Position numbers and translations under genes: made by a program
Source of the DNA: Marsupella aquatica
Taxonomy: Eukaryota; Plantae; Marchantiophyta
Assembly (NCBI GenBank): GCA_973895155.1
Contig: OZ316894.1
Coordinates: 8,518,234-8,582,233 of the forward strand
DNA: 64,000 nt
Direction of reading: 5' to 3'
The notes under the pieces: model-generated
The model's database searches: none
What the model was told of the DNA's origin: nothing
Seen by the model: the letters and a program-made list of their open reading frames with translations, nothing else
Part shown: piece after piece, positions 2,787 to 56,800 of the stretch
Numbering within the stretch: position 1 is the stretch's first letter
Layout: every line of letters starts with the position of its first letter

Positions 2787-2897
2787 CCCTCCCTCGCTCT
2801 AAGGGCTAAAGCGTTCCTAATCAGATAGGAAAAGACAGGGTATATGATGGCGTAGATACAGATCAGAATGTCGTGGACCTGATGGATATATATAGGT

Positions 2898-3365
2898 ATG
2901 TGGCTGATGTTGTCGTGCTTGCAAAAGGTGGTTTCTTTAGTGGATTTAAAGCTGGAACATCTGCAGCGGAGACTAGCTGAGAAGACAAGTCATGGGATAG
3001 ATGTGGATGATGGTAAGCAAATGCTTAAACCCGTGTCAGACAGCGTAGTGAAACGTTACATTCTCACAAAATTGAGGAAGCAGGTTGGGCCGTCTGAGCT
3101 GATGTCCTATAGATGTATAAATAGAGCGTGGCAGGATGCGTTGAAAAATACAGAAGAGTGGACAGCCTTTGAATGGATGAAACATGAAGTGTCAAGAAAA
3201 GAAAAGTCTCGTCAGGAACAGATTCAGAGGTATTGGTTCAATCTTCATGATTTACGAGAAGAGATCAGGAATCAAGAAAAGTCCATGGAGGAAAGTATAA
3301 ACGATTTCAGGATGGCAGCATTGCAGCAGAAATGTGTGTGCGATGAGATGATACGGTCTTCATGA
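2898..3365 (+). CDS. Antisense accessory ORF inside the copia 3' region: F-box-like motif plus coiled coil
   Basis: 155-aa open ORF between RNase H and the PPT. LKPVSDSVVKRYILTKL...LMSYRCINRAWQDAL...W resembles the F-box consensus LPD(D)(I/V)xxxIL..L....L..R.V(C/N)(K/R)xW. Confidence 0.5.
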   Translation: MWLMLSCLQKVVSLVDLKLEHLQRRLAEKTSHGIDVDDGKQMLKPVSDSVVKRYILTKLRKQVGPSELMSYRCINRAWQDALKNTEEWTAFEWMKHEVSRKEKSRQEQIQRYWFNLHDLREEIRNQEKSMEESINDFRMAALQQKCVCDEMIRSS

Positions 3366-4057: not shown

Positions 4058-4399
4058 CACTAGTGGAAAATAGTGTCCTTAATGACTAGAATGAGGACTG
4101 AAAAACGAGTCATATGTACCAATATATGACTAGAGCTTTTCTGTCATACCTGCCTCGTCTTTTAGGACAGTCAATTAAGACAAATGACTAAAACTCTCAC
4201 CAGTCATTTATGGTAGTCCTAAATGACACAATATTTTTGAAATGACATATTGTTCTAAATGACTGAATGAATGGCCGTTAGTCATTTAGGTATATCTTTA
4301 ATGACACATATTTAAACAAATCATATTACAACACGTGGCAACTACGCATGGTTGTCATTATATGTCATTTTAGACATATCATAAATGACACAATAATAA

Positions 4400-4612
4400 A
4401 TCATTTAAGGTGTCATTTAGTGTGTCATTGAAGGTGTCGTACATGGTGTCATTAAAAATGTCATACAAGGTGTCATTGAGGGTGTCATATAGGGTGTCAT
4501 TGAGAGTGTCATTGAAGGTGTCATTGAGAGTGTCATACATGGTGTCATTGAGGGTGTCATACATGGTGTCATTGAGGGTATCATTGAGGGTGTCATATAG
4601 GGTGTTTTTAAG
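4400..4612. repeat. 12-bp tandem array (GTGTCATTGAGG-like), CACTA subterminal repeats
   Basis: About 17 degenerate 12-bp units containing TGTCAT. They generate the spurious NDTL and VSLR repeat ORFs. Confidence 0.9.
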
Positions 4613-4710
4613 TAATGTCATTTGGGATGTATTTAAGAGCTCATAGTTATATTCAAAATCACATACAATGAATCCACTTAAACCCTAAACAAAGACATCA
4701 CTTTGCGCAT

Positions 4711-4855
4711 CATCATTGTATTCAAAAATTCACACTCCAACATTCACAAGCTCTAATATAGAATAATTGAAAAAACAGAAGTCATCATTGTATTCATAAA
4801 TTCACATTCCAACATTCACAAGCTCTAGTATAGAACAATTGAAAAAACAGAAGTC
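4711..4855. repeat. ~72-bp tandem duplication
   Basis: CATCATTGTATTCA...AAAAAACAGAAGTC occurs twice in tandem. Confidence 0.85.
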
Positions 4856-4960
4856 TTTATGATGAAGTGATAGAAAGTACACATTTTTCACTCGCATGAG
4901 TGAAACAATGGTAACCAAAATATTCAAAAATTCTCTGTTCTATATGATCAGAGAAAATGT

Positions 4961-7956
4961 TCAACACTTCCGAAGAAACCTAGCATTCCACAATGTATTC
5001 ATTCCTAACACATTCCGTAAGCAGAGTTGTTTCTCTTCTTTGTTGGATATTGACAATGCTGCATCACCACAATACACTGCCTTAACTGATACTCGCACCC
5101 AAGGACTCTCAATCATGACACAATGAAATTTATCCTCTCCTGGTAACCCTGTCACTTCACCTCTAGCAACAACTGTAGAGCGATCCACAACGCTTCGTAC
5201 TTCTACAGCATCTCCTTTTGAAAACTGCCACACAAAATTGTTAGGACAAAATATTGTCTTGTAGTACTGATTTGGGCATATCATCAATTTAAGAACATAA
5301 ACCAACTGAAAATAAATTCACCTTTGTTGCTGGATTTGGGAAGAGAACTGGTCCTCGTTCACTAGGTGAGATAGTGATAGGGGTTAATTTCTTGAATCTC
5401 TTTGAAGGCCTACGTGGTGTAGCCTCTTGTTCTTGAATTGCATTTGACACTATCTGTTCATCTGTGACAGCAATCTCATCACTCTCACCATTACCAATGC
5501 TGCTTTGTACAATGCAAGGTTCCTGTAGTGCTCCCAAATTTTCTTCTCCCATACTTGGCTTTGGCTTCTGCCTTGTTAAAGTATCTGATTTCTCTCGCTG
5601 TGATACAGGATTCTCCCCTGAAGAAGCTACCACAAAACCAAACAATGAATGCTTATCTAGAAAACTTCATTCTAAATTGAAAAATAAATTATTGCATATG
5701 TAACATGTTTAGAGTATAAGTTTGTATGTTCTTACCATCACCATTACCTGAGAAAGTAAGAGAATGTTTCCTGCTACTACCTTTAGGCTCAACCACCACC
5801 TTAGTAGCAATTGCATTTGATAATTGCATATGGAACTCATTCTGTTGATTTTGTGCAATGAAAGAAGTCATCATAGATGTCAAATTGTCCACTTTGAATT
5901 CAAGTTTGGTTAAATTCTCCATAGACTGTTCAAGCTTGAGTAATCGAGCTGGTTCCTCAATTGTAGTTTCCCTGGACAGTGGAGTCTACATACACAAACA
6001 CACCATACAATGTCAATCATCAATGATAATTTGAACATCATGAATAACTGATAATCAAAATTGAATATATATACACAGATTTTCATTACATACCGCTGAT
6101 CCATGTGCAGATCCAATTCCAACAAAACTACTGCCTCGATGTTCACCACTGCCCATAGATGGACTAATCTGCACTAGGGGATTGGACTACTAGACACAAG
6201 TTTTGATGTAACAGGGCTCGTCATTCCTTTTGCTTTCTGGAAACACATAATCACATTCAAAGCAATTGGAATATTAATGAGAACTCATCATGTCATTATT
6301 TATTCCTATACTAGATAAACACTTCAATTCAAATGACAGTCTAGACCTGCAATGAGATGGACCATCTGAATATTCTTACCAATCTTTTTTTTGCTCCAGC
6401 AGCCCCTCCTCTTCCAAAATGCTCTTTGTTCACCACTTCTGCCCTCCTTGCTTTCATCATAGCACTCCTTGCAAGCAAAGTAGGACTATCAAAATGATCC
6501 ACCAGTCGTGCTCATTTCAATGGGTCAACATATTGAGGTCCTGGTTTGGAGCGATCACGTTTACATACATCCTTCCAATAAGTATTTAGTTTGTGACGTT
6601 CTCTTTTCAATAACGTCCGACAGTGACTAATAAATTTCTTGTCAAACACTGGCTGCTTATCTGGATACTCCCAATCTGCCTTCATCAATTTTTGCACATC
6701 CTCAATTATGTTTGGATCTTGTTTGTTCCAATCAGGTTCTGATACATCAAAAAGCCTCAAGACATTGGCACGTAGCTCCTCCATCCAATATGGTTTATTA
6801 GGATGAGAATCATCAATATCATTGTCATGAATCTGAAAAAAACACCACAAATGATAGTCATCAACATTGGGAATGAAACAAACACCCAATTACTTCTGAG
6901 TACACAAATGTGAAATGTGCAATGAAAATCTTACCGTTATCAATTTTCCCTTCTTATTGTCAGCCCTTCTTGCACTACCGGTTCTCTGGAATTGTTTTTT
7001 GGCTTGCCTAGATTCCCTGCGTTGCTCTATTGCAGTCTTTCTTCCCTCTACATACACAATGAGCATCCAATATTGATCATCCACAATTGCAAAATGAGGG
7101 ACAAGAAATATTACAATATAATAGGAGGACGCTTCATTGAATTTGACTTACCTGAACCCTGACTGGATGTCACTACTGCAGAGTGTCCAGATTTCCCAAT
7201 CGATGTTGATGGAACCACCACTATACACATGCAAACCACTGGAGTTATGAATCCAACATTCATATAGATCAACATTGAAAAATACATTAAAAATCTTTGA
7301 AATTACTTACATTCAAATAGCTGGCCAGTCATAGGGTCTTTGTAACATTGCACCATGCCACTCATGGAAGGTCCAACCTTTGTAGGGGTTTCTTTTGCAT
7401 CTGCCAAGCTCTTAGATGGAGGTTGCAGATGTTCCTGTCTAGATCAAGTTAAAACAAATGTTTTTAAACAGAATCATTACCAATGTCTATAGTTTCCTCA
7501 TAATGTTGGTGAAATGTAATAGGAATCTCACCTTGGATGAACTTTCTGGTTTCTCATCTTCACTGTACTCAGCATCAGTGTCATAATCTGATTCAGAGCC
7601 CTCATCACCAGACTCTGCCATACTCACTGAGGCAATTCTTGATAGTTTGGAACTCTGTCTCCTCTGTGTGGTAACCTCACTTCTAGGAGTTCGATGTGCA
7701 CTTGTTTCCTTCTTGCGCCCTACAGTCTGTGTTGTGCATTCAGTCTACATCAGAGAATATCAATGAATGAATGACAAGTATCAAAAACAAACTCATTGCT
7801 GATGAGCAATATTAACACATCTTTGCACATTAAAAACAACATGCAAGATTATACTCACATGAAATTGAAATTTTCTCCAAATATCTCCTTGAATTTTCTA
7901 TTGTTGTCTGTTACCTTCTTATTTCGTTCCTCCTCATATGGAGGTATTCGCTGCAT
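4961..7956 (-). CDS. CACTA second gene (TnpA/ORF2-like), multi-exon; exon boundaries approximate
   Basis: First exon MQRIPPYEEERNKKVTDNNRKF carries the YE..R...N motif typical of CACTA ORF2 N-termini. Many GT-AG introns on the minus strand. Includes exon ORFs 6512-6832, 5289-5986 and 4961-5250 (VVARGEV...FH...WVRVSV...DAAL...LW). Confidence 0.65.
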
Positions 7957-8040
7957 TCACTGCTAGACTATGGCATGCCATGTTAGTATGATCCCACTCC
8001 CAACTAAATGAAACTGGACTATACAGTATCTTCAAACCAT

Positions 8041-11000
8041 TCATTTCCTTTTATACTTTCTTTTTCCTTTGTCTGTAGTACTTGGTCCAGGCTCCTGTCT
8101 AGTTGTACAGGCTTCTGCCAACTCTATGTGAAACTTAGCATTGTCATCCATAGTATCATGGAAATCAACTTCCATGTAATCACCCAACACCCTTGTAGAC
8201 CTGGATTCCTTGTGGAGGATTGCCCTCCATGCAATCTCCTTATCATTTGGGTAAAAAAACACCTATTCTATCTGTCGTGGCAGTACATAGTCCATTTTCT
8301 TGGAAGCACCCAGCTCCTTCTGAAAATTTACTTGCCACAATCCAGACGCATCATATCTCATACTTGCAGTGGCTTTGGGAGTCCAAGATGGGTTTGCCCA
8401 CCTTCCTTTGAAAAGGACCACTTCCTTTATCAGAGGCCCATAGTTCAACACTAAGATGTCTGTCAACACCCCCACATATTGTACAGATTCATCTACTATT
8501 GCCCCTGACCTAATGACCCACTTCTCAGTGAATGTACAAGCCATCCCAGAATCAAAAGTCTTGAACCCAGATGAGTCACAATCAATCAAGGAACCTAGTG
8601 ATGGAATGGTCCTCCAATGGTGCCCATAGGCTCTACAGGCCCTGTACCGTAGTGCCTTCAGACTAGGTGGTACACTATACTCTGCCAACACCATTCGTTC
8701 AAACTCATTCTCAAAATTATGCCTTCTAATTGTCACTTCAAACCATTCTCTAAAAGGAGGCAACTCATCCAAATCAGAGGGATAAGGCACAGGATTCCTC
8801 CGATTTCCTGGATTCTTCATCCATTCTTTCCGGAAATCTGCTCTGTGCTTGGTAACTGCCTCCTTTTGATCATCATAAACCCTGCATGGCAAGAATGATA
8901 GTCAGCTCCTAGGCCCACACAATTTCTGCTCAAAACTCAATTTTGTTTAATAATAAACAACAGAGAATTTAACAATATAAATTAACCATGCTCATACCTA
9001 TACCATGGTTCCACCAGCTCTTCATTCTCCAGTATGTAATGATGCATAGTTATCATATCATTCCACTCCAAGGTGATTTGTTTTCCAGCTCCTTCCAAGA
9101 CAATGCTTGCAACACGAGGATTCTCCTCCAAGTCCCATGTTCTCATTCCTGTCCCCTTAACATCGATCATGTATTCAGAAAGGAATCCTAAAGATTCATC
9201 CAGAAGGTAGCCTTCAGCCATAGAAGCCTCTGGACGTGCCTTGTTTCGAACATAACCCTTCAAGGTCTTTAGATATCTTTCTATTGGGTACATCCATCTA
9301 ATGTTCACTGGACCACAGATGTCTAGTTCCTGAACCAGATGAATCAACAGATGGGTCATGACATCAAAGAAGCTTGGTGGGAAATGAATTTCCATAAGGC
9401 AGAGTGTGAATGCAACATCCATCATCACAGAGTCGTACTGTGAGGGATCCCAAACCTTGGCACAGATGGTACGCCACACATTGCTCACTCTGGCTATGGC
9501 CAACCGAACACCTTCATCAAGTAATCCCATTGTTGCCAATGGAAGGATTTGTTGCATGAGGTGATGGAAATCGTGAGATTTCAGCCCTGATAACTTCTTC
9601 TTAACTGTGACACATTTAGCCAGAGAACTGCTGAAACCAGTGGGCCCTTTAAAGGTCAACAATACCTCTAAGAACTTAGTCTTCTCTGTCTTACTGAGGC
9701 AGTATGGGGCTGGCGGCATGATCTTTGAATCTTTTTTTGGATCTGGATTTGGAACCAGCCACAGGTGTTCCCGCACGTCCATGACTTTCATGTCTTCTCG
9801 AACAGAAGGAGTATCCTTTGTCCCCAAAATAGTGTGCATAATGTTGTGTGCAAGATTCTTCTCACAGTGCATGGGATCCAAACAATGGTTGATGAGAAGT
9901 TTCTGCATTGGACGCACAGTTCAGTACAAACTAAGTTAGAATAAGAAATGTTACTCTTTGCTACTTAACATTAATACACACTGAGGGATTCAGTATGGGA
10001 AACCAGATACTTACACTCTAGTACGACAGCTTGTATAATCCAGTAACCCTCTTCACTCCATTCTTCTTTACTGGAGAGTTTTCATCATCCAGCGCATTCC
10101 CTGGTTTCTTCTCCACATATTTAGCGACCTTTTCTCCCCAACGTTTCCTATCAGAGCTGGACACTCTACACGGTGCAGCTCGTGCCTCTAGCTCACCATT
10201 AAAGTATTTTGCCATTTCCTTTGTGCAAAAATAGTGTCTCTGTGGTAACCAGCGATGATGGCCAGCAAAGAGTAACTTGCCTAACTGTTTTGAACCATGT
10301 GCCACACAATTTGGCCCACAAACCACACATCCTTTGTACCCTGCATGTTGTTGGCCAGAGACTAATCCATATGCAGGATAATCATTGATTGTCCACAATA
10401 CTGAAGCCCTTAGCTTGAACTCTTGTTGCAATCCTAGCCTTGGTAGAACATCAAAACAATCCACTCCTTCTGACCATAATGTCTCAAGATCATCCACAAG
10501 TGGAGCCATGTATACATCAAATTGTTCCTCGCTTACAGACACAGGACCTGGAATTAGAAGAGCCAGCATGACAAAGAACTTCTTTGTGGAAAGCCAAGGA
10601 GGGATATTATAATTCAACAGTAGGATTGGCCATGTAGACCAGGCAGTAGAATTATTTCCAAATGGATTTACCCCATCAAGTGCCAATCCCATTCGCACAT
10701 TCCTTGGCTCAGCAGTAAAAGCAAGGTCGATCTCTGTGTCCACATGTTTCCATGCCTTTGAATCTGCTGGATGTCGGACCATGTTGTCCTTGCTCTTGTT
10801 CTCATGATGCCAAGTCATTAGCTTAGATGTACCCTTAGTGGCATACAATCTCTTCAATCGAGGGATTATAGGGAAATATCTCAAGACCTTCACAGGCTGT
10901 AAAGAATTCCCCACTAACTTCATCTTTGGTTGATTACACTTGGAACAATTGTCCAACTCTGCAGTCTCATTTCTAAATAACATACATCCATTCTCACAGA

Positions 11001-12507
11001 CTGGGATTCTCTCATAGTCTAAACCCAATTTTCTCAGTAATTGTTTTGCAGCATATAGGTTTTTAGGGAGAGTGTGCTCTGTTGGCATTCCATGCTCAGT
11101 CAACAAAGACAACATGGCATTCACTCCCGTGTTCGAGAACCTATTGTTGTGACAGATGTTTAAAAATAACAACATGAAGGAAACTACATCTGTCTTACTG
11201 CCTGGAAATAAGGGTTTCATGGCTTCTTCTAAAGACCCTTGTAGAGGGACAGGATTTACAAGATGCCCTGCTGTAGGTGTGTCCTCAGCCCTGGTCTCAG
11301 CAGAGGGTGGATCTCCCTCATTCTCATCATTTTGAAACATTGAATCTATATCAAAAGGAGGATCATTATCCACATATTCGTCATACTCTTCAGAAGCTCT
11401 TGCCAATGTCTCCTGAAGTAAAACTTTGACCTGCTCTTCAACATCTATTGATGGCTGGCCTGAGTGGAATGCCTCTCGAGACATTCTTGCCCTCAGTGCC
11501 TCTGGACCAGAGCCCTGGGCCCCCAGCCTTTGTAAACTAAAGAGGTATATGTGCGTACACCCCCCTCCCTAGTACCCCTTATTATTTTTGGAAGCCTATA
11601 AAATTTCTCTTGTTATTCTTAAAAACTTAATTTTGGAGAATAAATATGCCCCTTTGAGATATTATAATTTCACATTTTACACCATTTATGAAAGCCTTGA
11701 AAAGTTATAAATTCATCATGTGCAAACGGTTCTAAAACTGACGGGAGTGTTTTGGAAGGGTTTTGGGTACATACATTTTTGTGTTCGTGACCCTTTAACC
11801 CCAAACTTCAACTTTGGGGCATTTCTGAACCACAGGGCAGGGTAGTCAGGGTTCAAAAGCTCCAAAGTCCTAAACTACTCTGAATCATAGATGTTGCAAG
11901 CATAATTATATGTCATATACACATGTTCCAATAAAGGGTGGCCACAAGGACCAATCCTATTGTGATGCGTGTCACATCCATATTACATTAACTCTTGAAG
12001 CATATTAACTTGGGCAATATTTATATAAGCCTATATTAGTTAGAAAGGGTTCTTTGAATAAAACCATCCCTTGATATTTCTAAGCCAATTATAAAAATTA
12101 ATCTCAAATCAGATTTTTTGCACCCTTCATCCGTTCGCACGTCCAGCCCATTATTAATAATGCTGGGGGCCCAGGGGACCAGAGTTATGGATGTAATTGG
12201 ATCTCCACTCCTCATCAGAAGAGTCTTCATCCTCTCCTACCCACACTTGACAGGCAGGGTAGCGGCCATATTTAAGAAGATGTTGTCGACTGGTCTTTCG
12301 AGTAGTCTTAACAATCCCTTTGCATTCCATGCAAGAGCAATACATTCTATGATCAGCACTACCAGAGCAAGCTGTCTGTTCCCGAGCCCATAAGTTATCA
12401 TCACGACGCTGTATTCGACGTGGATGGGAAAGAGGTAAACTTCTCAGGTTGTCTGCCTCTGTTGTATATGCAGTGTTATGTGACCCAACCTGGCTAGAAG
12501 AAGCCAT
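8041..12507 (-). pseudogene. CACTA Tnp2 transposase (transposase-associated domain, Transposase_21, DUF4218, DUF4216), disabled
   Basis: Motifs MYCSCMECK..HLLKYG, RHPADSKAW, LALDGVNPFG, INDYPAYG, LDPMHCEKN, GLKSHDFH, RWMYPIERYLK. Introns at 9903-10014 and 8882-8997. Nonsense codons at 10018-10020 (Y-TAG, expected W) and 8263-8265 (E-TAG-VFF, expected Q). MITE inserted at 11513-12176. Confidence 0.93.
11513..12176. mobile_element. 664-bp MITE with 15-bp TIRs and an 8-bp TSD
   Basis: CCCTGGGCCCCCAGC ... GCTGGGGGCCCAGGG flanked by GACCAGAG on both sides. Removal restores the transposase frame HNSGP-EALRARMSREAF. Confidence 0.95.
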
Positions 12508-13488
12508 GATTGCAGCACTACCTAATCAAAAACACAGTTGCACATCTTTCTTCTTTGACATCTTGCAGAGCATATGAATTGTTCTAGACAACTCCAAAAT
12601 CCTTCCATACCATCTTCTAGAGCGTCATCTGAAGCAAATGTGTGCACAAGTGAAGAATTAGACATACATTTGAGGTACTGGACTCCAACTGAAGTAAAGG
12701 CAGCTCCCACTTTAGCCCCGTTTGCCAATAGAATAGTTCATGCATGCCAACAACAGGTAAACAGATGACATATTAGCAACTTGATCAGAAATTATTTACT
12801 TGGGTACGTTACCTAATCTCATTTCATATTGTAAGTGGCATTGGGTATTTGAAGGAGATCTGAATTGTACAAATCAAAATGACAAAAGTTTACAAAACCA
12901 AATAAAAGCCTACCTCAACCAGATTTAGGGCAAGGGTGTTCACAGTAGTCAGCAATCTCGGACCCTTCAAAACAGTGAGTACAATAACAAACATTAATCA
13001 TAATGTCCAACAATCCCCTCCTTCATTCTTTGTCTTTTGAATTCATTTGTTGAAATGATCCTCTTCATCAAGGCAGTTTGTTGTGGGCAGGTACTAGAAT
13101 AGATTCCAGAAGGGTTTCATGTAATGTACATATTTAATTAAACATATAGTGTTTTTGTGCAGTAGTAAGAATGGAATACACACTCAGTCTTCAAAATCCT
13201 CAAAAATGAGAAAGTTTGAGAAAGTTTGAGAAAGTTCAGAGACCCGGGTTGAGAGCGTTCTTAAGGCTGTGGGTTTAGAAAGGCAATACTACAATACTTG
13301 AAAGACATTAAGTGAAGTTTGCCTTCTTATGGCCAGATCCCTGAAAAGGGACAACAAAACTTTTAAGACCTTGGGTGGATTTTAGGTCTTGTTCAGGTCA
13401 GTGTGATGTTTTTTAGTTTTTTTGTTATGTATCTCCATTCAGGCTCTTCACATGTTTGCCACTGACACTCTTAACAGTCATCATACAA

Positions 13489-13935
13489 TCAGAATTGATA
13501 CTGGTCTTTCTCCAGTAAGTGTTGCTCTACTCTAGGGCAAACAGTCTCAACCCCTGGTCCCAAGACTGGCTCATCATGGTGGAACATTATACAGGCACAC
13601 CTCCTCTGCAGCCTATTGTATCCATCCCGCCTATATATATCCCTTGGGCGCACTCGACATTTTGGGCAAAAATCCTCACAACTGTGGATATAGGCAGAGT
13701 AGCATATCTGCTCTGGTTGTACCACTCCATTATCAACTGCCACAATACAAAAACCTATGGGTAAGGGTGGAGCATCCAGAGTAATGGGCCGACTGTACGT
13801 GTCTCTATGTATAGGCGAAAACTCCCATTGCACAACAGAACTGGCAAGGACCAACCTCATTCCACTCAGCTTCAGGCGTAGCCTCTCAGCTCTGCCTTCA
13901 AGGTCAGCTCCCAAGCTGCTACGCGTCCTTGGCAT
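13489..13935 (-). CDS. Orphan Cys/His-rich ORF inside CACTA (~148 aa from ATG)
   Basis: ATG lies just after a splice-acceptor-like TTGTTACAG. Open frame contains HSCEDFCPKC...RRCACIMFHH. Family not recognised. Confidence 0.45.
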   Translation of the reverse strand: MPRTRSSLGADLEGRAERLRLKLSGMRLVLASSVVQWEFSPIHRDTYSRPITLDAPPLPIGFCIVAVDNGVVQPEQICYSAYIHSCEDFCPKCRVRPRDIYRRDGYNRLQRRCACIMFHHDEPVLGPGVETVCPRVEQHLLEKDQYQF

Positions 13936-14353
13936 CACTGTAACAAATACAAGAAGCAATAGCTTATCCAACCCAAACGCTTCAATGAATTTCATGCAAC
14001 AATTTAGCATTCAACTATTTCATACAATCACACAGTTTAGTCCATTTGAGTTTAGTACATTAGATAGTGTAGTCCACTTCATACAATCAGACAATTTAGT
14101 CCTTTTCATACAATCAAACAGTTTAGTCCATTTAATACAATCATCCTACTTTAGTCCAATTCAGCTTAATCCATTGAATCCAACTTGACATAGTACTCCA
14201 TTTTCATCCAACCAAAAACTCAGGTGCTCCATTGTACCCCTTTAGTCCATTTTTTTATGTCCAGTATACTTCCATAAGTCCTTAGCCCATTTTAAGTTCA
14301 GTATACTTTGTACTATGCAGTGTTTTCTACACAACTGAAGGCTTAATTATGAT

Positions 14354-15052
14354 CTATTTGAAATCATGTGGTGGCACCTCAGAACCCTCTGGAATGACAT
14401 GGCGATTGCAGTACACCATACGCCATGGTCCAATATCCCACGTTTCTCTACCCTTCACCCCTCTCTTGAGGTGTTTGTCTGCCTCTGGTCCCTCATCCCT
14501 GCACCACGCACGAGGGCACCTACGACAATCGATAAATTCCCAGATGCCATCCCGATACTCTTTGCAAACATCACAATAATGCCTTGGGCATATCAGAGCA
14601 GCGGGATGTGCATCTAAGTTCTCTGCATATCCCAAGAGAGGCAACTCCCTTGCCCTCAGTATGGTCCGCAGACAACCCACGTGATAGAAAGAAAAGCAAT
14701 CATCTTGTGCACATTGAACCACAAGGGGCTCATCTGTAGTGGGCTTTAGGGTTCGGCCAAGTAGTCCACAAGCAAAGCAACGACCTCGGTTCTGCTGGCA
14801 GAGTTCACAGAGCCACTCCTTGGCCCAATCATGCCCTCTAGAAATGGCAATGCGTGTGCACTCAGACCCATGGCCATCAGGCTCCTCGGGATCTTGCCCA
14901 GCAACTAAGTAATGGAAATGACGACTGCAAGGCCCATCGCAAAACAAAACAGTACCTCCCTCATCACATTCAAAACAACAAGGGGGATCCATGCAAAGGT
15001 GCTCTTTATGGGCAAACTTTGGATCCAGCCAGGCAGCAGCAGCTCGTGCCAT
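14354..15052 (-). CDS. EDM2-like composite PHD-finger protein encoded by the CACTA element
   Basis: Intact 232-aa ORF: CFECDEGGTVLFCDGPCSRHFH...C...WLCELC...CFACGLLG...VVQC..DCFSFYHVGC...ICPRHYCDVC...CRRCPRAW...W...MVYCNRH. Colinear with the EDM2/NSD-type PHD cluster. Upstream GT-AG intron at ~15055-15156. Confidence 0.8.
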   Translation of the reverse strand: MARAAAAWLDPKFAHKEHLCMDPPCCFECDEGGTVLFCDGPCSRHFHYLVAGQDPEEPDGHGSECTRIAISRGHDWAKEWLCELCQQNRGRCFACGLLGRTLKPTTDEPLVVQCAQDDCFSFYHVGCLRTILRARELPLLGYAENLDAHPAALICPRHYCDVCKEYRDGIWEFIDCRRCPRAWCRDEGPEADKHLKRGVKGRETWDIGPWRMVYCNRHVIPEGSEVPPHDFK

Positions 15053-17289
15053 GCCTGATGTGATGTGTGGATCTGCACAATTACCTTAAATATTACAAGA
15101 AGTCTAAGGAGAAGGGCAACAAACAAGTACAAAGATGGTATGCGTAGTGTACTTACCGTAATCTGATGTTTAAGTACACGTCAGAAGATGTCCTGCCCAA
15201 CTCAGTCTCACGGAGTAGAAGCAATGTCAAAAATAACTTGGCTCTGGTTTATGTGTTCTGCGCAGAGAGCAACAAGTTAAGCATACTTGGTAAATGTAGT
15301 GATCAATCAAGGAATTACCAATGCTGCCTCTAAATTCCTATGTACTCAATTTCTATTAGAGGTGTTGAGAAACAAACAAAATACGAGAGATTGAGTAGAA
15401 GAGCAAACATGGCTCAATGCAGTGGCTTAGGTAGAACCTCAGCAACAACTCTTACTTTGGTTCATTTAACTCCACGCAGAGCCGGGCTTTTTTCAATGAT
15501 GGATCAACAAAGACATATTATATTCGATGGGATCAACAGACAGACAACGTAATTTTGAATAGCAAAACTTAATCCGAAAAAGTTTTCAATTCAAACACAT
15601 CCTACAAATCACTCCCAACATCTCTTCTAAAGACAATGGGGGTTTCTCAGATAATCTCAACAACAAACCAATAACGATAGTAGACACACGACAATAATGC
15701 AAGCAAAATTGGAGCACGCCCACCTCCACTGGACCCTTGTTAGGTAGCACCACTACCAATCAGAGGTCCAATCTTCCTTAGAATCCTCAAAATTGATGCA
15801 AGCGGAAATGCAGGCAGGAATGCAGCTCCAATCGCACCTTGGCAACAACTAGTCTCTGCAAATATGTAGGTCCAATGTGGTTCCAACACAGGTAAGATTT
15901 GGGAAGAGTCAAAACTATCATGGATCTCCTCATAGCGAGCAAACCTTAGCAGTCACACAGTATTTAGTGGCTACTTTGAAAAAACATTAAAAAAAGTCAA
16001 TGCTCGCAGGTGAAGGAGTAGGATAGAAGGCAAATATATCAATTCTTTCCCTAAGCTTGAGCAAGCAATCCGTCGGAAAAGCAACAGAGACCTACCGCTA
16101 CATAGGAAATTAGATGTTGTCAAACAGAGCTTGGTCTTCAATTCAAAAGAGACCTGGGATAGACAGGACCGCAACTTTTTGTGAGGGAGGGGGGCGCTGA
16201 CTACAACGGATCAAGATTAGCACAACTGACCTTGTAGGCTATTGCAACTCCAATGTCCACCTCCAATTGGCTCAATGTTCAATTCGCAGGAAACAAGTAT
16301 ACTGCACGACATTGCATAGTAAGCACAGTATACCAAAAGGACCATGGCCAGACAATGACAGAAACAAATCAGTGAATATTATACAGGGACTGTGAATCCC
16401 AAGCCAACAAAGCAACAACCCCAACCCTGTACAGAGATCAATAACATTCCAGCAGCTCAAATCTGGTACAAAATGCTGGTATCTTTGTTTTTCATGATTG
16501 AAGAGCAAATTCCAGCAGACAAGGACTCGGAAATGAGAGATAGCAAAGTACCTAATAGCAAGGTACCCGAGGTAGAACATTTAGGCAGGGGTCGGAAATA
16601 GGGACATGCTTACACAAGCTCGATGTACATAACTGAATGACAAATGAGGTTGGGACTAATACTAGGCGCATTGGAAAGGGAGAACTTCAATTTACGATTG
16701 TAAGGGGCAGCATCCAGCAAAGGGGAAGCAAAAGCGCAAAATTTGCAGCATGGCAAAGGGGACAGGAAGCATGAAATCAAAGCATGACCGGCAGGGGGAA
16801 GAAGCACAGTAGGTGGACAGAGAATGCACAACTATCCAAGATACCTCAAAGATGCGCTGTATTTGACGTGGATGAAATGGTAGCAGGTAGCGGCAGTGGT
16901 GTTGCAGCAACTCCCTCCGTAGCTCTAGCCAAAGGCGTAGAGCAGTCTAACTCTCGTTCACGTTGCAGCTCCAACATGCAGGACGGTTAGCATTGCCCAA
17001 GTGCGCACAGCTTGAGCTCCCTTTCACCTGGTTTTTCCCTAATGACAACCCGCGGCCAAAGCTAGTCCCAAACTCAAAAGCCTCCCTATTCACAGTGCAC
17101 AACTTCAAATCAATCCCACCGTCCTCACCGATCAGTCCCACCTCGCGAATGGCTTGCGGATGGAATGCAGAGACTAAGCGCAAGAGACCGGGCCACACTC
17201 CATCCACACTGAAAAGATGGGGAGCAACATGCACGACCTTCAAGAAACATAGGCGCAGCGGACCTCAACTCCTTCGCCCTAAAACGTAA

Positions 17290-17500
17290 TAGCGACCTCA
17301 CAACGACCTCACAACAGCGACCTCGTAGCAGCGACCTCACAGCAGTGCCCTTGCACCTCAACTCACTGCTCAGCACCGAGCTTGCGCGTAGCAGCGACCT
17401 CGCACTTCAACTCACCGCTCAGCCCCGATCTTCAGTAGCAACCTTGCACCTCAACTCGCAGCAGTGACCTGACTCGCACCTCCACTCGCTACTCAACTTC
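17290..17500. repeat. Short degenerate tandem repeats (GCGACCTCACAA / GCACCTCAACTC) in the CACTA leader
   Basis: Repeated 12-14-bp motifs visible directly in the sequence. Confidence 0.7.
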
Positions 17501-18179
17501 ACGAGAATACCTAACTCCCAACGTGAACTTGTGACTTGTGTGACCGGTGTGACTGAACGGGTGACCCTAAACCCAGGTCTGAATTTCTTATGGGAAAATG
17601 GGATCCAAGGAAGATAGGGCCAGGGCATGACAGGATGACACATGGTTGGCAAATAAGGCTTTGGGACACCAACAGGAATTTTACTGGGATGTTGAGGGTA
17701 GTAATGGAGTCAATCTCCAGGTTCCATAATACCCCTCTAACATTATTATCCCCTCGCCAATCAATTTTAGGAGATGGAGGAAGTTTGGGGCGAAATGCTT
17801 TTTTGATGACACAAATACTTGTCACAAGTATGTATTACCATTTACAATAACCAATGACTCAAAAACTTAATGTACTGGTGGCCTTTGAAACCCATTGATG
17901 TGGAAACCTAGGTGCCAAAATTCCCAAATAGTATATGCATGTAACACAAAACAAATTACAAACATATGCATAGGTTTAGGATGTACATCCTCATTGACAC
18001 GTCACAATTACCTAAGTGAGGAAGTCATTTGGTGGACATTCTCATAAAATTAGTCACTCACATATTAAATCACTAATCTCATAGTCCCCAGTCCTAGGGT
18101 TGACAACATAAATGACTTGTTTTGATGTCATTGCCCAAAACTTAAACTCACGGCACTCCATAATAGCCAAATCCAATAC

Positions 18180-19330
18180 ATTCTTTGTGGGTAGCATCCT
18201 TAATGGTGGGCTCCTATCACCAATCTGACCAATCCCGCATCCAAGCCCCCAAAGAGTCATATTGTCCATGGCATGCGTGACTGCCGCATTGCCATCAACA
18301 ATGACTCATTTTCATGTCAAATGCATAAATGACATATTAGAGGACTGCACAAATCACCAAAAAGTGCACTCACTCGCAAAATGACTCGGAATCCCTTGGG
18401 TATAACCAAATGGGAGTGATATGGACCACTTTAGGTAAACGACTCCAAAGTCATACAACTTGGGAGTGTTTTGCCCAAAGTTGGGTGACTCCCTTCCAAG
18501 GTGCAAAAATTTTGCTACAAAAAACCTTTAGGAGGCAAAGTGGCATAACTAGTGGCGTAAGGTTTGAGAGTACCCTATCCCGCACCATGTGGAGTGAATA
18601 GCATCCCTAATGGCCGGCTACGATCACAAATATTGCCAATCAGCCCCCGACGGCCCAAACAAGTCATATTACCCATGGCATGCATGACTTCAACATTGAC
18701 ATCATGAATGACTGCGTTTTGTGTCATTTGCATGAATGACGTCTCTCGGCACTCCCAAAATGACAAAACCCTTAGTCACGTGCACAAATGACTCTAATTC
18801 CTTTCCAAATGACCAAGCAATAGTGGTTTGCACCCCTTCAAGAAAATGACTCCAAAGTCATACAACTTGGGAGTGTTTTGCCCAAAGTTGGGTGATGCTC
18901 TTCCAAGGTGCAAAATGTGTGTTTTGAAGGTGCAAAAGACTGCATAAATGACAAAAATATTCATTCACACGCACAAATGACCCAAAATCCTTTACAAATG
19001 ACAAAATGAGTGTGGTTTGCAACTGTTTGGGCAAATGACTCCAAAGTCATACAACTTGCAAGTGTTTTGCCAAAAGTTGGGTGATGCCCTTTCAAGGTGC
19101 AAAAGTTGGGTCATAAAAACTATAGCGAGGCCAAATCCCGATAACTAGTGGCCCAGAGTTTATGCCTTCTACATCCCGCACCATGTGGAGTGGGTAGCAT
19201 CCCTAATGGTTGGCCCCTATCATCATTATGGCCAATCAGACACCGGAGGCCCTTAGGAGTCATATTGTGCATGACATACATGATCACAACATTGACATCC
19301 CAAATGATTTATTTTCATGTCATTTAGTGG
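18180..19330. repeat. Complex internal direct repeats of the CACTA right arm
   Basis: GACTCCAAAGTCATACAACTTGGGAGTGTTTTGCCCAAAGTTGGGTGA at ~18441, ~18849 and ~19038. A TAGCATCCCTAATGG block occurs at ~18193, ~18599 and ~19195. Confidence 0.85.
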
Positions 19331-21571
19331 CACTTGCCAAATGACTAGAAAGTTGAGTGAAAGCATAAATGACTTACAATTCTTTGCAAATAACAGTCCG
19401 CGTAATTGGAAAAATGACAATAGCAAATACAGGCATCTAGCACCTAAACCCTAAACCTACACCAGATAATGTTATCTGTTAAGTCTAAATATATTTAAAA
19501 TATAATTTGTGTGTGCCCCTAGTCTTTATAGTACCATGCGTGTTGGATAGCTAATATATAATATCCTACAAAGTTAAATCATATACTAAAACCCTAGACC
19601 TCAAAATAGTCATATATGTTGTGGGAGAAATGAGACAAAGAGTTGGTTCCATCTTTACTCTTGGTAGAATATGTACATGTGGCTACGGCCTAAGTAGTTA
19701 GGGTAGTTACATAGGTAGTTATCCCAAAGGTAGACTTAACTCAAGTATGAGTTACAACACTCCCCCTTTGTAACATTGGGGTTGAAATGTTACAATCAAG
19801 AGTCTACTTTGGGTATATTCAGTGGTATACAATAGGTTTTGTTTATGTCTAGCCTATTTTATAAATGGTGTAGCCATCTCAAGTCTACTATAAATGAATG
19901 TCAAGCTTCTCCTAATAGATGTCTTATAATTCATGTTGCATGGTAGAGTGTAAGTGGGGGATGTAACCTCATTAAAACCTCCCCTACTTTCTTTGTGGGA
20001 GGAAAGAGTATTACCATCCCCATGGGTGAAACATAATTGGGTTTAAGCATATAGTGTATGTGTAATTTCTACAAAGTCTCTTAAGGTGCTTGTCAGTACT
20101 ATAGGCTGGTTGAGGATCTTCCTTAGTTGATTGTTTCTCGTGTCTCCTTCCAATCGGGAAATGGATACTCCTTGATGGTCACCGATTACATGCCATGACA
20201 AAGTAAAGTATTAGTACAAAATGAAGATGATATGGTGTAATCCATGGCCTTGGAATTGGATTGGGTGTCTAACCCTAGATTTGGTGTGGGCATAACCTAT
20301 TTGCACCACATCACGTACCATATCCACAACATAGGGTTATCATATTGGGGTATGGCGCACCATCTCTTATGGTGCCTTACCATGCCATGTCTCACCTTAT
20401 GGTACCTTATGACCTGGTATTGTACCTCATATTATCATATGGTACTTTAATATCCAGTATACCTCATCAAGTATTGGTAAGTGATTGTGTTAACACCATG
20501 TTCAATCATTTATAAAAATTCCTTAGATTTCATGATTTGCCATATGCATGGAATAGAGTTCCATTTTTAGGTATTCATTGGTGCGAAAGGCACTTGTGCA
20601 ATAGGCACATCCCATGGGTTACATTGCTTGATGTCAAGTCTTACTTGAGGTCTCCCCCTCAATTTGTCATTTATTTTTCCTTTCTGGCTGGGTGTGCAGT
20701 AGGCACCCATTTGCTTCCATGTGCAGTAGGCACGTTGGGAAAAACAATTCTCCCCCTGAATTTATGAAATTAATTGGTGGAAGTAATCATCATTTGTCGC
20801 CATGTAGGTTCTGTAATTTAGTTTCTTTCTTTATACTTCATGCCTTGTTGTTTGGTTTTTCTTGCCTTTTGAAGAGAAAGTCTCTTTGTTCTTTAGTTCT
20901 CCATTACTTAGTGTAAAATGGTCTTCTTAGAAGAAAATGTGGAGGACTTTCCTTTGGTTTGATGGCTTCTCTTTGTTTGCCTCCTTTGCCCGGCGTCTCG
21001 TCTGTAGCCTGTACCACGATCTCCGTCTGCATTGGACGTCCTTCTCTCTCCTGGCGTTCCTCACGTTCTCTCTTTGGTTTTTCGGGTTTGTGCTTCTTTC
21101 AATGTTCTTGGATTTATCCTCCTTGCCTTTGGTGCTTATTGTTTCTCCTCTGTCTCGCATTCTTTCCTTCAAAGTTTTCTCCCTTCGCGTTTGATCATGG
21201 TCTGTCTTTATATGTTCGCGATGCTGCCTGCCTTGCTCACGATCTGCGTTCGATTTCTGTAGTGTCTTCTCTCCTCTTATCTTTTCAATTGGGAATTAGG
21301 CGTAACTATGGGTGTTCCTTATGAATCAAGCTTCCGTATGGGGTCGCCTTCACGGACTGGAAGTAGGAGGTCTGATGACTCATTCCAAAACTTGTTCCAA
21401 AATGCAGATGCGTTAGTATAACCACGTATCATCTCGGCAAACGCCCAGTGTGCCTCACTTGGCCCCCGAAACCAAAACATTTTGCGCCTGTCGAGAGAGC
21501 TTCACAAATATGATTGACGGAAACTTCCCTACATGTCGTCGATCTTGAATGACGGAGCATGCTTCATCTTG

Positions 21572-22317
21572 TTATCGAATTGTAACGTAACGGTTAGTTC
21601 CATGCTTTGCCCAGTGCTCCTTCAAATCGACAGGATAATTTACATTTATCCCTTCGGAGCCGAGTTGTTCCAAAAAGTTCATGGAGATCATAGTAGTGCA
21701 ACGCGAGGACTGCCAGCCCCCGTTACCCCATCTGTAACACTGCTGTCTCACACCTATACAGGAGCAGTGGGGAATAGGGTATCGCACATTATCAACGTCG
21801 TGAACATCATCGTTCGGGCCCTTCAGGTAATCGGCCTTGTCGCTATCTCCAAGCTCCAAACGATGCTCCTGGGGAGAACGACATGATCTTTTCGAACGCA
21901 CTGTGCGATCGAGCGTAGATTTCACTATTAGCTTCCTCTTCCTAGGAAACCCACAAACTGACTCTTTTGGCGTCGCCGATCTTGCCAAGGTCACTTTGCT
22001 CTTGAACAACAACACTGTACCGTGTGGAAGACAAGGGAGCCTAATGAAAAACTCCTACAATAGTACAATTCTTTTCATACTCAGCGGATGGAAGAGCTTT
22101 GAATCTTTCACCAATGGCCTCTTTTGGACAAGGGTGTTTTGTTCGCTGAAATATCAAGAGCTGTAACAGCAGCATCGCGTTCCTCCATGGCGGAATCTCG
22201 ATCAACGTAAGCTACATCACATAGCAGAAGAGCAGCGTCTCTCTCCTCATATGCAGCTATTCTCTCCGTGATAGCCAAATTTTGCTCCAAGATAGTTGCA
22301 TCCCGTGCGGCTATCAT
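21572..22317 (-). pseudogene. BPC: Captured class II BBR/BPC (BASIC PENTACYSTEINE, GAGA-binding) gene, degenerate
   Basis: Alanine zipper IAARDATILEQNLAITERIAAYEERDAALL...RDSAMEERDAAVTAL. C-terminal PIPHCSCIGVRQQCYRWGNGGWQSSRCTTMISM...VDLKEHWAKHGTNRYVTIR*. The middle has frameshifts or stops, and there is an internal deletion. Confidence 0.9.
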
Positions 22318-23444
22318 TGGCTATCGAGCGAGGCCTGCCCCTATGAGGTCGCGATGTCCTAATCGAATTCTTCTTTCTGCTTTTTGATTGTCTTCTCTCT
22401 ATTGCTGTCGTCTTGCTCTTCTTATCCTTTTCACCCTGGAGGGGGATGCTGCTTTTCAGGATCGGTTACTCTCGAAGGGCGAAGGACTCATCAATGACTG
22501 ACGAAGAATGTAATCTTGTGATCCTCGGTTGGGGATAGACTTCCGTTCTGTTCTACATTCTTCTTGAGTTCTCTTTGAATCTTCTAAGAAAAATTTCCTT
22601 ATCTCCTGCTATCCTTACGAGTTCCTTATGGAATTGAGGCTGTGATCTGTGCCTTGGATCGGTTTGCTTGTGTGATGATCTCGCTGCCTGAAGTGGAGGT
22701 CGCTACTTTCTATGGTCTGCAAGTCGCGACTTTCTTCACTTGCCTCTTTTCGCACTTCTTACGCGATTGCTCCAAATCCTTCTTTCGTTTTCCAGTGATG
22801 CGACCAACGGGTTTAATTTCCCATGTTTGTCCTGCTTTTCTGTCAGCATAGTGTCGGGAAAGCGTAGTGTCGGGAAAGAAATCACAACATCCTGTTACTG
22901 CTTCATCCATTTCGAATGCCTCCAGCGGTAGACTCGAGTAGAACTGGAAGCAAACACAGGAAACAGAGTAGATTGTCGTACTCCAATCTGTTGTGCGCTC
23001 ACGACCAGCCGTCAGTGAGCTGGTGTTCGCTAGAAATGTTATCAATCAAAGATGTAGTTGGTGTGAGGGTCTTGCTCGCCAGGGAATGAGAAAACACCTT
23101 GGCCACCAACTTCCGACTCCTCAAAATGGCTGGAGTTCCAATCGCTGGCTCATTTCCAGATTCGTGAGCGCGTCAACAACACTGGCTCTGACTGACTGTT
23201 GCTGTTGCCTTACTGCTGTACCGACTTGAAAAGCGTGCACCGAATAAGATGGCGCCTTGATATTCAATTCACCATAGCCGGGATCAATTCTTCCTTGGCC
23301 TTACTCCCAAAGAAAAATTGCTCGCGCAGCGCTTCAAGCAGCTCTCGCAAAAAAAACTTTGGCACATTCGAATCACATCTTTTCCTTCTTTCTTCGTCTT
23401 AGAGTGAATCAGTCATGGCCTAAAAAATTCAGCCAATCTTAGGC

Positions 23445-23458
23445 TCGTGCTGATAACG
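23445..23458 (-). promoter_or_regulatory. Primer-binding site complementary to the anticodon arm of tRNA-Ile (half-tRNA priming)
   Basis: Plus-strand TCGTGCTGATAACG versus the plant tRNA-Ile(AAU) arm TCGTGCTAATAACG, recalled from memory. It sits directly against the 5' LTR. Confidence 0.75.
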
Positions 23459-24000
23459 TGTTGTGGGAGAAATGAGACAAAGAGTTGGTTCCATCTTTAC
23501 TCTTGGTAGAATATGTACATGTGGCTACGGCCTAAGTAGTTAGGGTAGTTACATAGGTAGTTATCCCAAAGGTAGACTTAACTCAAGTATGAGTTACAAC
23601 AATATATTGTTTATCATGTCATTTATCACTTTAGGTTTAAATGACTACTAAAATTTTTAAACATTGATATTTCCATATTTGTTTTAGTAGTCATTAGTCA
23701 CCGTCGTCCTAAATGACTTCCCAAATGTCAAACATTGATATGACAAGGTTATTGTCATTTGTGTCATTGACAAAGATTGTCCAAAATGACTACAACTCAT
23801 TGGTGTTGTCATTATAGTAGTCACGGTCATTTGGCTCATTGGTTTAAATGACCCTATTGCAATTATTAGTCATTTTTTTCACCCTGTCATTATAGACAGT
23901 CATTTATGTGTCATTCATGTCCTGTCATTAAAATATATTGTCATTTGGGCACAACGGTCATATGTGTCATAGTCATAAAAGGCCCCATTTTCTACTAGTG

Positions 24001-54598: not shown

Positions 54599-55459
54599 TA
54601 GTTGTAACCCTTAACGTTGTTTTTTTAGGGGTGCAATAGTTATGTTCAAATCCACCGACAAGTGGGTGGGGTAAAGCACCCGTACGGTACATGTTTTGGT
54701 GTGCTGGAAACCTACTTTTGAATGATTCGTATGATCTCTCCTTGGGTTATTTTTTGTTCAGTAATAAAAAACCAATAACCATAACAAGTGGCCAGCATGA
54801 TAGAGACCACTCGTCAGCAGATAGACATGTATTTCATCCCTGGTTGGGGGCCCATCATCATCAAAAGTGCCCCACTGTGAAGTTTAAAAAACCAAACAAT
54901 TGTGTTTTGAAACAGCAACAGATACTGTAAACAAAACATTTCAGGAACAGACCCATACGACTGTAGCTGACCCTTGTTGGAATCGGGGTTGGAAATTTGG
55001 AATCATTGTAGCAGCAGATCCTTCCTCACCTCATTGGAGGAGCGAACCCATGTTCTACTACTTTGATCAATGGACTCATAAATGCTCGATGCCAGATGCT
55101 CGTGCCAAATGCTCAGGTTTTAGTAACAGGCCTAATATGATTGGCTAATTTTAGCTGATATCCCAGTCTCAGTTGATTTTAGCTCTGCTTCGACGTCCCC
55201 ATGCTGGCTTTTTTTTTTACATTTCAAGGTTCATTTCTTAGATGTGAAATCAAATGGCTGAAATTGAGACTCATCTACAGGGACCATTTTCATGGCAACA
55301 GTGGATACTCATTGCAACAGTGGTATGGGATTTCACGAGTGTGGTCCCCAATGCTAAAAATCAGGACCCTGAGCCAGAGTTTGAGCTAGTTTTACAACAA
55401 CAAAAACTGGTTCTGAATTTGTTCAATTCGCCAAGTATATGGACTGATTTATTTTATAT

Positions 55460-56800
55460 TTCTTGGGTCTCTCCCCACGAGCTTCTTGGGCGCGTGGGCG
55501 GCCGCCTTCTCATTGTTGGCAGATCGTTTCCTTACTGAGGATCGACCTTTTTTACTTTCATCTCTCATGGAGGTCGAGGAGGGTTCCCTCCCATTTCAGG
55601 TTCATTTGCGCACGGCTCGGTCATCATTACCCGATCCTGTTCGAGCTGCGTTACCTTCATTCCAGGAGTTTTTATCCTTGGACCCCGTCCGTCTTCAGGC
55701 AGACCTTGCTGGGCGTATGCACGCATTCACCCTCTCCAGCATCCTCACCGAGGCACCTGACACGGACCGAGCTCGGATTCTTTCTTCCGGAGGGAAGGGC
55801 GCAGGAGGCTGGCTTCAGGCCAATCCAGTCATTCCTCACCTGCGGATGTCTTCAGCGGAGTTTGCGACAGCCATGCGTCTTCGTATGGGCTTGCCCCACC
55901 CACTTCTTGCTGGTTTACCTCCTACTTGCACTTGTGGGAAGCCTTGTGATGCCACAGGTGTCCATCTTCTTCGATGCAGTTTGGGCGGCGAAACCATTTT
56001 TGTTCACGACGCTGTGAGAGATGCGACTGCTCAGGTTCTCTCTGGCTCTTTGGTCTGCGCGCGGCGGGAGGTGGTGCTCGAGTTACCTGGTCCTCCATCA
56101 CAGCGGTTACGGGTGGATCTTACCATGGTCCGTGACGGTCACCGTACTTTGGCAGATGTAGTGGTGGCAAACCCATTGCGCCAAGACATCATTGGGACAG
56201 CGGCAACAACGGCAGGGGCAGCAGCATCACGAGCAGCACAAACGAAGGAGGCCAAATATGCTGCACGAGCTTCATCTGATAGCTTCCTGCCCCTTGCTCT
56301 TGAGATATTTGGGCGTCTTCATCATCAGTTCGACGGGCTTCTTCGCCAAGCTGCTCGGGATGTTCACGGCCGGATGGGTCCCACCGGGCCCCCGCTATCT
56401 GTTTTGACCACGCACTTTCGCCAACGCATTTCAGTCACCTTACAGCGTGCTCAAGCTCGGGCCGTCTATCGTCGATCTCTGACAGTGGGTGCTAGTGTGA
56501 CTCCGCAGCGGCTAGCCCCCCTAGAGGACATTCCTGTCCCACTTGCCGATCTAGTTTCGACACTTGATGTAGACCACTAGCTTGTAGCCACATTTGCTAG
56601 GTATGATGAGGACCTCGGTCCATTTGCGGTAGTTTTAGTTACTCTTTCTTGGTTTTTAGGGGTTTCCTTTTGCTCACTTCTTTTAGTTCCTCTTTCTTGG
56701 TTTTTAGGGTTTCCTTTTGCTCACTTCTTTTGCGTTTGGTTTTGTCCACTTGGGACCTCTCTTGTTTATTCTTTTGTACTCTATTTGGCCTTTTTCTATA
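55460..56800 (+). mobile_element. 5'-truncated CRE-clade (RLE-type) non-LTR retrotransposon; open 364-aa C-terminal ORF at 55486-56580
   Basis: GAGGWLQANP...MRLRMG, zinc finger CTCGKPCDATGVHLLRC, HDAVRD, RVD..LADVVV, KEAKY, PLALEIFG, RISVTLQRAQA. T-rich 3' UTR with a 49-bp duplication. Confidence 0.82.

Follow-up and report, generated by a model that had tools for sequence, protein, structure and literature searches.

A non-autonomous LTR retrotransposon in the liverwort Marsupella aquatica with a captured and broken coding sequence assigned to BPCV

A 64,000 nucleotide stretch of the liverwort Marsupella aquatica (contig OZ316894.1; the whole of this stretch is referred to here as the window) contains a retroelement of 3985 bp at 19617-23601 on the minus strand. 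It is a non-autonomous long terminal repeat (LTR) retrotransposon with a captured host gene, of the type known from maize Bs1: the LTRs begin and end in TG...CA and are flanked by a target site duplication (TSD), a primer binding site (PBS) and a polypurine tract (PPT) are present, no gag or pol was found, and the host sequence has been amplified in related samples. As judged from sequence identity and trees, the captured gene is BPCV, the V gametolog of Feminizer BPCU in Marchantia. The element has likely carried it to several sites in the genome, and the cargo is probably a dead passenger without function rather than a working regulator.

The element and its cargo

The element consists of the following parts, with coordinates given in the window.

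23459-23601, minus strand: 5' LTR of 143 bp, TG...CA, with 143 of 143 bases the same as 19617-19759
19617-19759, minus strand: 3' LTR of 143 bp, with 143 of 143 bases the same as 23459-23601
19612-19616: left copy of the TSD, ATATA
23602-23606: right copy of the TSD, ATATA
23445-23458, minus strand: PBS, CGTTATCAGCACGA, abutting the 5' LTR and complementary to the anticodon arm of tRNA-Ile(AAT)
19760-19769, minus strand: PPT, AAAGGGGGAG, abutting the 3' LTR
22318-23444, minus strand: 5' interior with no identifiable gene; variants in the family delete 22934-23038 or 23060-23241
21572-22317, minus strand: pseudogenised BPCV coding sequence, captured from its zipper Met through to its stop codon and assigned by identity and tree
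19770-21571, minus strand: 3' interior with no identifiable gene; its 3' end is the part found in the largest number of family members

The PBS is complementary to the tRNA-Ile(AAT) anticodon arm at 14 of 14 positions, provided that A34 is counted as inosine, which corresponds to half-tRNA priming of the Bianca type. Four of the 115 viral-contig matches to a PBS motif with one base changed were tRNA-Ile(aat) genes according to ARAGORN, these being tRNAs of the viral contigs and not the host's own. The neighbouring Copia element, by contrast, has a PBS of the common tRNA-Met type. In the literature, the PBS sequence led to unrelated primers. No tRNA genes were detected in the window, and inside the element there were neither matches to Rfam families nor inverted repeats of at least 20 bases.

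Pfam families of gag and pol were absent from all 15 open frames outside the BPC cargo and from all 15 read-through translations of the element, and the polyprotein of the neighbouring Copia gave no tblastn match to it below E 0.74. When one frame of the 5' interior was compared with 1.84 billion proteins only 8 matches were returned, and these were rejected as a gene identity because all were spurious: each lay in a repeat protein (protocadherin, FG-GAP, LRR) and was no more than a short motif. The sequence had no entry in the Atlas. A gag in this element may have decayed past recognition. TRIM elements (terminal-repeat retrotransposons in miniature) are under about 1 kb, and large retrotransposon derivatives (LARD) have kilobase-long LTRs; at 3985 bp with LTRs of 143 bp, the element falls outside both size definitions.

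Pfam GAGA_bind matched both the C-terminal frame of the cargo (E 9.5e-34) and its zipper frame (E 3.9e-5), in sense orientation in the element. The top protein matches were liverwort BPCs, led by Calypogeia fissa and with MpBPC2 in fourth place. MpBPC2 is MARPO_YB0017, a gene on a Y/V scaffold, and BPC1 and BPC2 were renamed BPCU and BPCV by Iwasaki et al. (PMC8699743). An autosomal 'BPC2' was ruled out as the identity of the cargo, as MpBPC2 is BPCV on the V scaffold.

For identities and trees the cargo was read through, with X placed at the breaks. It shared 80-83% identity with leafy-liverwort BPCV (82% with an unnamed Logan protein and 80% with Calypogeia BPCV), 62% with MpBPCV and 47-49% with BPCU. 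A tree of 32 rows placed it in the BPCV clade (100/99), inside a six-row subclade with Calypogeia BPCV (95/96); in a tree of 16 rows the BPCV clade was again obtained at 100/99, and a grouping with BPCU was rejected (approximately unbiased test, p=0.011). This placement points to a leafy liverwort as the likely host. In common with Marchantia BPCV and BPCU, the cargo has an alanine zipper and a pentacysteine domain. Unlike Marchantia BPCV it lies in a transposon and is frameshifted; it has also lost about 16 codons at the start, 25 in the DNA-binding domain, and a single cysteine out of five.

The first captured codon is the zipper Met. The two models of MpBPC2 (starting MQLSM and MFCR) diverge solely upstream of the captured part, moss BPC loci are uninterrupted over residues 14-288, and the captured part likely falls inside one exon, so that a check for intron loss is likely to be uninformative. 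Among 58 metagenome loci none was the BPCV locus of a liverwort, the best whole-length matches being at 47%. In C. fissa, extra fast-evolving genes derived from BPCV are found on other contigs (CAM6097314, CAM6097315 and CAM6128255) with intact DNA-binding domains, and two of them are fused to unrelated N-terminal sequence; duplication of BPCV may therefore recur in leafy liverworts.

Comparison with the liverwort orthologues was used to place the lesions, which are given below with the longest zipper frame that they leave. X1 to X5 are public DNA runs, described in the next section.

21679-21680, minus strand: junction of a 75-nt (25-codon) deletion in the DNA-binding domain, between ISM and NFLEQL; common to family copies
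21965, minus strand: one-base frameshift; common to family copies
22041-22140, minus strand: stop codon at 22043-22041 and frameshifts at about 22071-22078 and 22136-22140; in part of the family only
21701-21703, minus strand: Cys>Arg in the pentacysteine motif; in this copy only, with a Cys codon in all listed depth at 21703 (X1, X3, X4, X5)
22108-22317, minus strand: open reading frame (ORF) of 69 codons with the alanine zipper, ended by the first frameshift; GAGA_bind match

The cargo therefore carries three frameshifts, one stop, the Cys>Arg change and a deletion of 25 codons. A working gene would have an unbroken frame from the zipper to the DNA-binding domain and five cysteines, and the cargo has neither. 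That liverwort orthologues might natively be without the 25 codons was rejected, as 13 of 13 aligned homologues have them, and no protein sharing the deletion stood out by identity alone among 71 near-length matches (best 55%).

The original prediction for this locus had described identical 143-bp LTRs, the ATATA duplication, a PBS and PPT, the lack of gag and pol, and an alanine zipper with a C-terminal BPC domain in sense orientation, all of which were confirmed by the comparisons and scans above. The breaks in the middle of the gene, the changed cysteine and the loss of about 25 residues that it reported are likewise accounted for by the lesions listed, the loss being of exactly 25 codons, and the zipper-only ORF at 22108-22317 does exist. 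Its naming of the gene as a class II BPC was right as to BPC, but the generic class II label gives way to BPCV in the tree.

Related copies, age and surroundings

Words from the element were found in six public DNA runs from four studies, of which the best held 53% of the words. The comparison covers X1 and X2 (organism A), X3 and X4 (organism B) and X5, with two species labels for the contigs of the family; X6 (word share 0.05) and X7 (0.03, with the species label of X3) were left out. No RNA run was listed among those containing element sequence, which speaks neither for nor against transcription. Contigs of X1-X4 cover the interior, and alternative alleles and indels occur together within one run (records 12 and 13 of X3; joints at 21391, 22933 and 23059). 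The element is a member of a family with several variants in these related samples, as expected from the original prediction that it amplifies a dead BPC copy and is not a single-copy capture. Depth ratios for the BPC domain were 3.4-5.4 in X1 and 4.4-6.7 in X3, or about 3-7 copies as a rough figure, given that each ratio is the depth of a single record over two single-copy-like references and depth is not a copy number. The same measure in X1 and X3 gave ratios of 9-13 (5' interior) and 21-34 (3' end). An intact BPCV-like gene of X5 aligns to 21680-21952, where 36 of its letters are different, and goes on into the missing codons for YPLPMNPTKR.

The deletion is crossed gap-free by X1 contig record 2 and X3 contig record 10, and there is no gap at 21965 in X1 record 3, X3 record 11 or X4 record 23; both lesions are therefore old and shared. 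Outside this copy, the stop at 22043-22041 is in X1 only. Substitutions confined to this copy number 6 in 746 bases, and if all 6 post-date the insertion, the probability that the LTRs would still be identical is about 0.1. The Cys>Arg change could have arisen after insertion. It had been predicted that the damage preceded the latest retrotransposition, and this holds for the 75-nt deletion and the 21965 frameshift, which are shared by the family contigs; Cys>Arg, absent from every listed X1-X5 contig that covers 21703, may be later. The 15 bases over the deletion junction (21675-21689) recur in inverted form within a stretch about 280 bases downstream in other copies of the family, behind a loose end at 21391 in X3; the stretch is absent here. 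This recurrence possibly reflects templated repair at the deletion.

Change between the copies looks neutral. In the coding part, the matches listed give 15 differences between this copy and other members of the family. Of these, 11 are non-synonymous, where 67-77% would be expected without selection (p 0.76-0.79), and so are two of the three differences listed for the zipper. The end branch of this copy has a length of 0.13-0.14, about twice that of the two nearest intact orthologues (0.057-0.089). Of the 58 zipper residues, 12-14 are unlike those two orthologues, which differ far less from each other.

Two further transposons surround the element.

4058-24000: host CACTA/EnSpm transposon (terminal inverted repeat CACTAG, TSD AAA, Tnp2 transposase), with the BPC-bearing element in its subterminal region
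2456-28125, minus strand: outer Ty1/copia element with a PBS of the tRNA-Met type and TSD TACTG; 331-bp LTRs with 7 differences

The nesting has three levels, in that the Copia, with LTRs 2.1% apart, is broken inside its reverse transcriptase (RT) by the CACTA, which in turn holds the BPC-bearing element. Contigs of X1 and X2 connect 19611 to 23602 with a single copy of ATATA, as at an empty site. In X2 and X3, contigs of the flank continue beyond the insertion point with letters that are not those of the LTR. A filled insertion site is in none of the contigs listed. The BPC-bearing element is young, as supported by its nested position and by the X1 and X2 contigs that join the empty site; the 0 differences in 143 LTR bases only bound the LTR divergence, to <2.1%.

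Elsewhere in the window, an ORF of the CACTA at 14357-15085 (minus strand) encodes a PHD zinc finger of NSD-like type (PF22908, E 1.4e-8), possibly a chromatin-reader cargo or an accessory gene. In the outer Copia, a 160-codon ORF at 2883-3362 (plus strand) runs antisense in the interval from RNase H to the 3' LTR and has no Pfam match. Also without a Pfam match is the 387-codon ORF at 55417-56577 (plus strand), which we take to resemble the C-terminal part of a retroelement polyprotein of the non-LTR or tyrosine-recombinase type. An intronless F-box/LRR gene at 59551-61035 (plus strand) is the sole clear host gene among the 61 ORFs scanned in the window; its protein had no counterpart in the exact-match collection.

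Origin and fate of the captured gene

In Marchantia, BPCU is the Feminizer, and BPCV is not sex-determining but is required for the induction of sex organs, which bpcV mutants do not form. The BPCU/BPCV pair is older than the split of the living liverworts, a single BPC locus having divided some 430 million years ago, and neither sex reproduces without its own BPC copy (all PMC8699743). BPCV is V-linked in Blasia too (PMC13182070), autosomal in Riccia (PMC11923412) and off the sex chromosome in monoicous lineages; the routes to autosomes given for such genes in PMC11923412 and PMC12131699 are aneuploidy and translocation.

We consider that BPCV was captured once, likely by template switching onto mRNA, was inactivated early, and has since been amplified passively by a Bianca-like partner while decaying and exchanging its interior, and we place the probability of this reading at roughly 0.7. 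The capture of the coding sequence would likely have involved a co-packaged mRNA, as reviewed for LTR elements in PMC13317346, in a donor plant that had BPCV (V-linked in Marchantia and Blasia, and possibly so in the host). The gene would then have been killed early, before the family radiated, by the 75-nt deletion together with the frame break near 21965, and further copying as passive cargo would have relied on the enzymes of an autonomous Copia primed by half tRNA-Ile. The copies would move and decay neutrally, some of them swapping most of the cargo for other sequence. V-derived sequence would likely now be on other chromosomes and transmitted through females, because new insertions would not be confined to the V. 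Given the neutral look of the changes between copies, it is most likely that dead cargo has been amplified passively.

Several points weigh against this reading. No autonomous partner element was found, no host genome assembly having been searched. With no run holding more than 53% of the words, the contigs are relatives of this copy, and the copy figures given above are those of the related samples. The 15 differences between copies form a small and non-random set. The empty sites are possibly paralogues, because their flanks are multi-copy CACTA, and as the captured part seems to be single-exon, capture from mRNA is indistinguishable from capture from DNA. Loose ends at 22206 and 21491 in X1, X3 and X4 point to a second subfamily, in which the middle (21492-22205) is replaced and the first 37 codons of the zipper are kept. 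Finally, two of the frameshifts and the stop are absent from the main X3 contigs, so the zipper frame there is likely ~124 codons long, which leaves room for a peptide.

Such a peptide, driven by the LTR, would consist of the zipper only (69 amino acids here, likely ~124 elsewhere) and would dimerise with BPCV or BPCU and block DNA binding, acting as the dominant negative suggested in the original prediction. The zipper is needed for dimerisation of AtBPC6 (PMC3037368), and in the element the ATG at 22317 corresponds to the conserved Met of the zipper, the ORF 22317-22108 holds the dimerisation domain only, the family-wide lesions are all downstream of the zipper, and the second subfamily keeps just the zipper start. 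Against this, the zipper has the changed residues described above and two non-synonymous changes among its three listed differences, the ATG is ~1.1 kb into the transcript with other ATGs ahead of it, both peptides stop short of a basic RKRK stretch that is likely the nuclear signal, and the second subfamily severs the zipper at codon 37. A microprotein is very improbable, and this part of the prediction was not upheld. In cross-talk by small interfering RNA (siRNA), an effect that the prediction had also raised, silencing of the family would turn the BPCV cargo into a source of siRNAs acting in trans on male BPCV and not on female BPCU, resulting in weaker male reproductive induction or in relaxed silencing of the element by the host. 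The copy is ~87% identical to the intact BPCV of X5 (record 28, 270 bases, 36 other letters), the true donor should be closer than this, and the BPCU-like contig (record 27) matches 41 bases. Cross-talk between captured fragments and their donor is documented in maize (10.1101/777037), and bpcV mutants lack sex organs, as mentioned above. The important donor genes in maize, however, kept their expression (10.1101/777037), and the element has neither the inverted repeat nor the Rfam match sought in it. We regard siRNA cross-talk as unlikely.

Acquisition could also have been local and at the level of DNA, by read-through or double-strand-break repair of an element in or beside BPCV, in which case the copies would stay linked to the donor, either on the V or on an autosome of a monoicous host where BPCV is not sex-linked. 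The single-exon captured part gives no intron evidence, the monoicous lineages cited above have BPCV off the sex chromosome, and C. fissa, the nearest named relative, has both BPCU-like and BPCV-like genes. However, the cargo, whose first codon is that of the zipper Met, lies in sense orientation between stretches of non-BPC element sequence, as template switching predicts, and the bin depths suggest a contig with the BPCU footprint at single-copy depth beside the copies in X1 and X3. Local acquisition is accordingly also rated as unlikely. The footprint is that of an X5 contig which matches only 21588-21628 and then has codons for TEGVNVKCPI, typical of BPCU. Excess depth in the same bins implies such a contig at 14.5 and 14.9 in X1 (two bins) and 25.1 in X3 (one bin), and because of this excess BPCU likely occurs alongside the transposon copies in both runs. 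In bins 21662-21739 (X1) and 21857-22012 (X3) the depth equals that of one element contig. One intact BPCV contig was found in X5 and none among the contigs of X1, X3 and X4, with the proviso that contigs show presence and not absence. These data provide a lead that the X1 and X3 samples are female, and if they are, V-derived sequence has left the V.

Comparison with known systems and implications

Capture followed by passive amplification is a known mechanism of the Bs1 type, and the notable part here is the cargo. As in maize Bs1 (PMC13317346), a non-autonomous LTR element has host coding sequence inside and the two are amplified together, and as in Veju (PMC13317346) there are subfamilies with exchanged interiors, attributed to template switching. 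Bs1 differs in having three gene fragments and an expressed chimeric ORF, whereas this element, known from sequence alone, has one nearly whole transcription-factor coding sequence that is broken; this cargo is a gametolog of the sex chromosomes, in a plant with a dominant haploid phase. The PBS for an edited half tRNA-Ile and the 5-bp TSD are shared with Bianca, a Ty1/copia element and the only plant element for which such priming is reported in PMC6317226; the likeness is confined to PBS and TSD, as RT, RNase H and integrase are not present here. A literature search for Bianca in liverworts gave work on flowering plants only. The maize capture conflict (10.1101/777037) likewise involves a transposon family whose sequence is nearly that of an important host gene. 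In the present case the donor is likely confined to one sex, so any conflict would be sex-limited. No report of a transposon-borne BPCV was found among the titles and abstract starts listed in the literature searches.

A more far-reaching proposal is that the active family exported BPCV into females and autosomes, and that the silencing siRNAs hit BPCV and not BPCU, imposing a reproductive brake on males only. This we consider quite improbable. If true, the brake could bias sex expression toward females, and the family would be a live example of essential V genes reaching autosomes before a switch to monoicy.

Copying of a nearly whole BPCV coding sequence by a retrotransposon is a second possible route off the V, although its product is dead here. 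In leafy liverworts, sex markers that rely on BPCV, and likewise the calling of gametologs, can be misled by transposon copies, and the family provides a natural setting for testing whether siRNA cross-talk is limited to one sex. The passenger belongs, as the male gametolog, to a sex-determining locus that ranks among the oldest known, which lifts the case above ordinary capture; should the cargo be inert, which is most likely, the event itself is an ordinary and well-documented capture with an unusual passenger.

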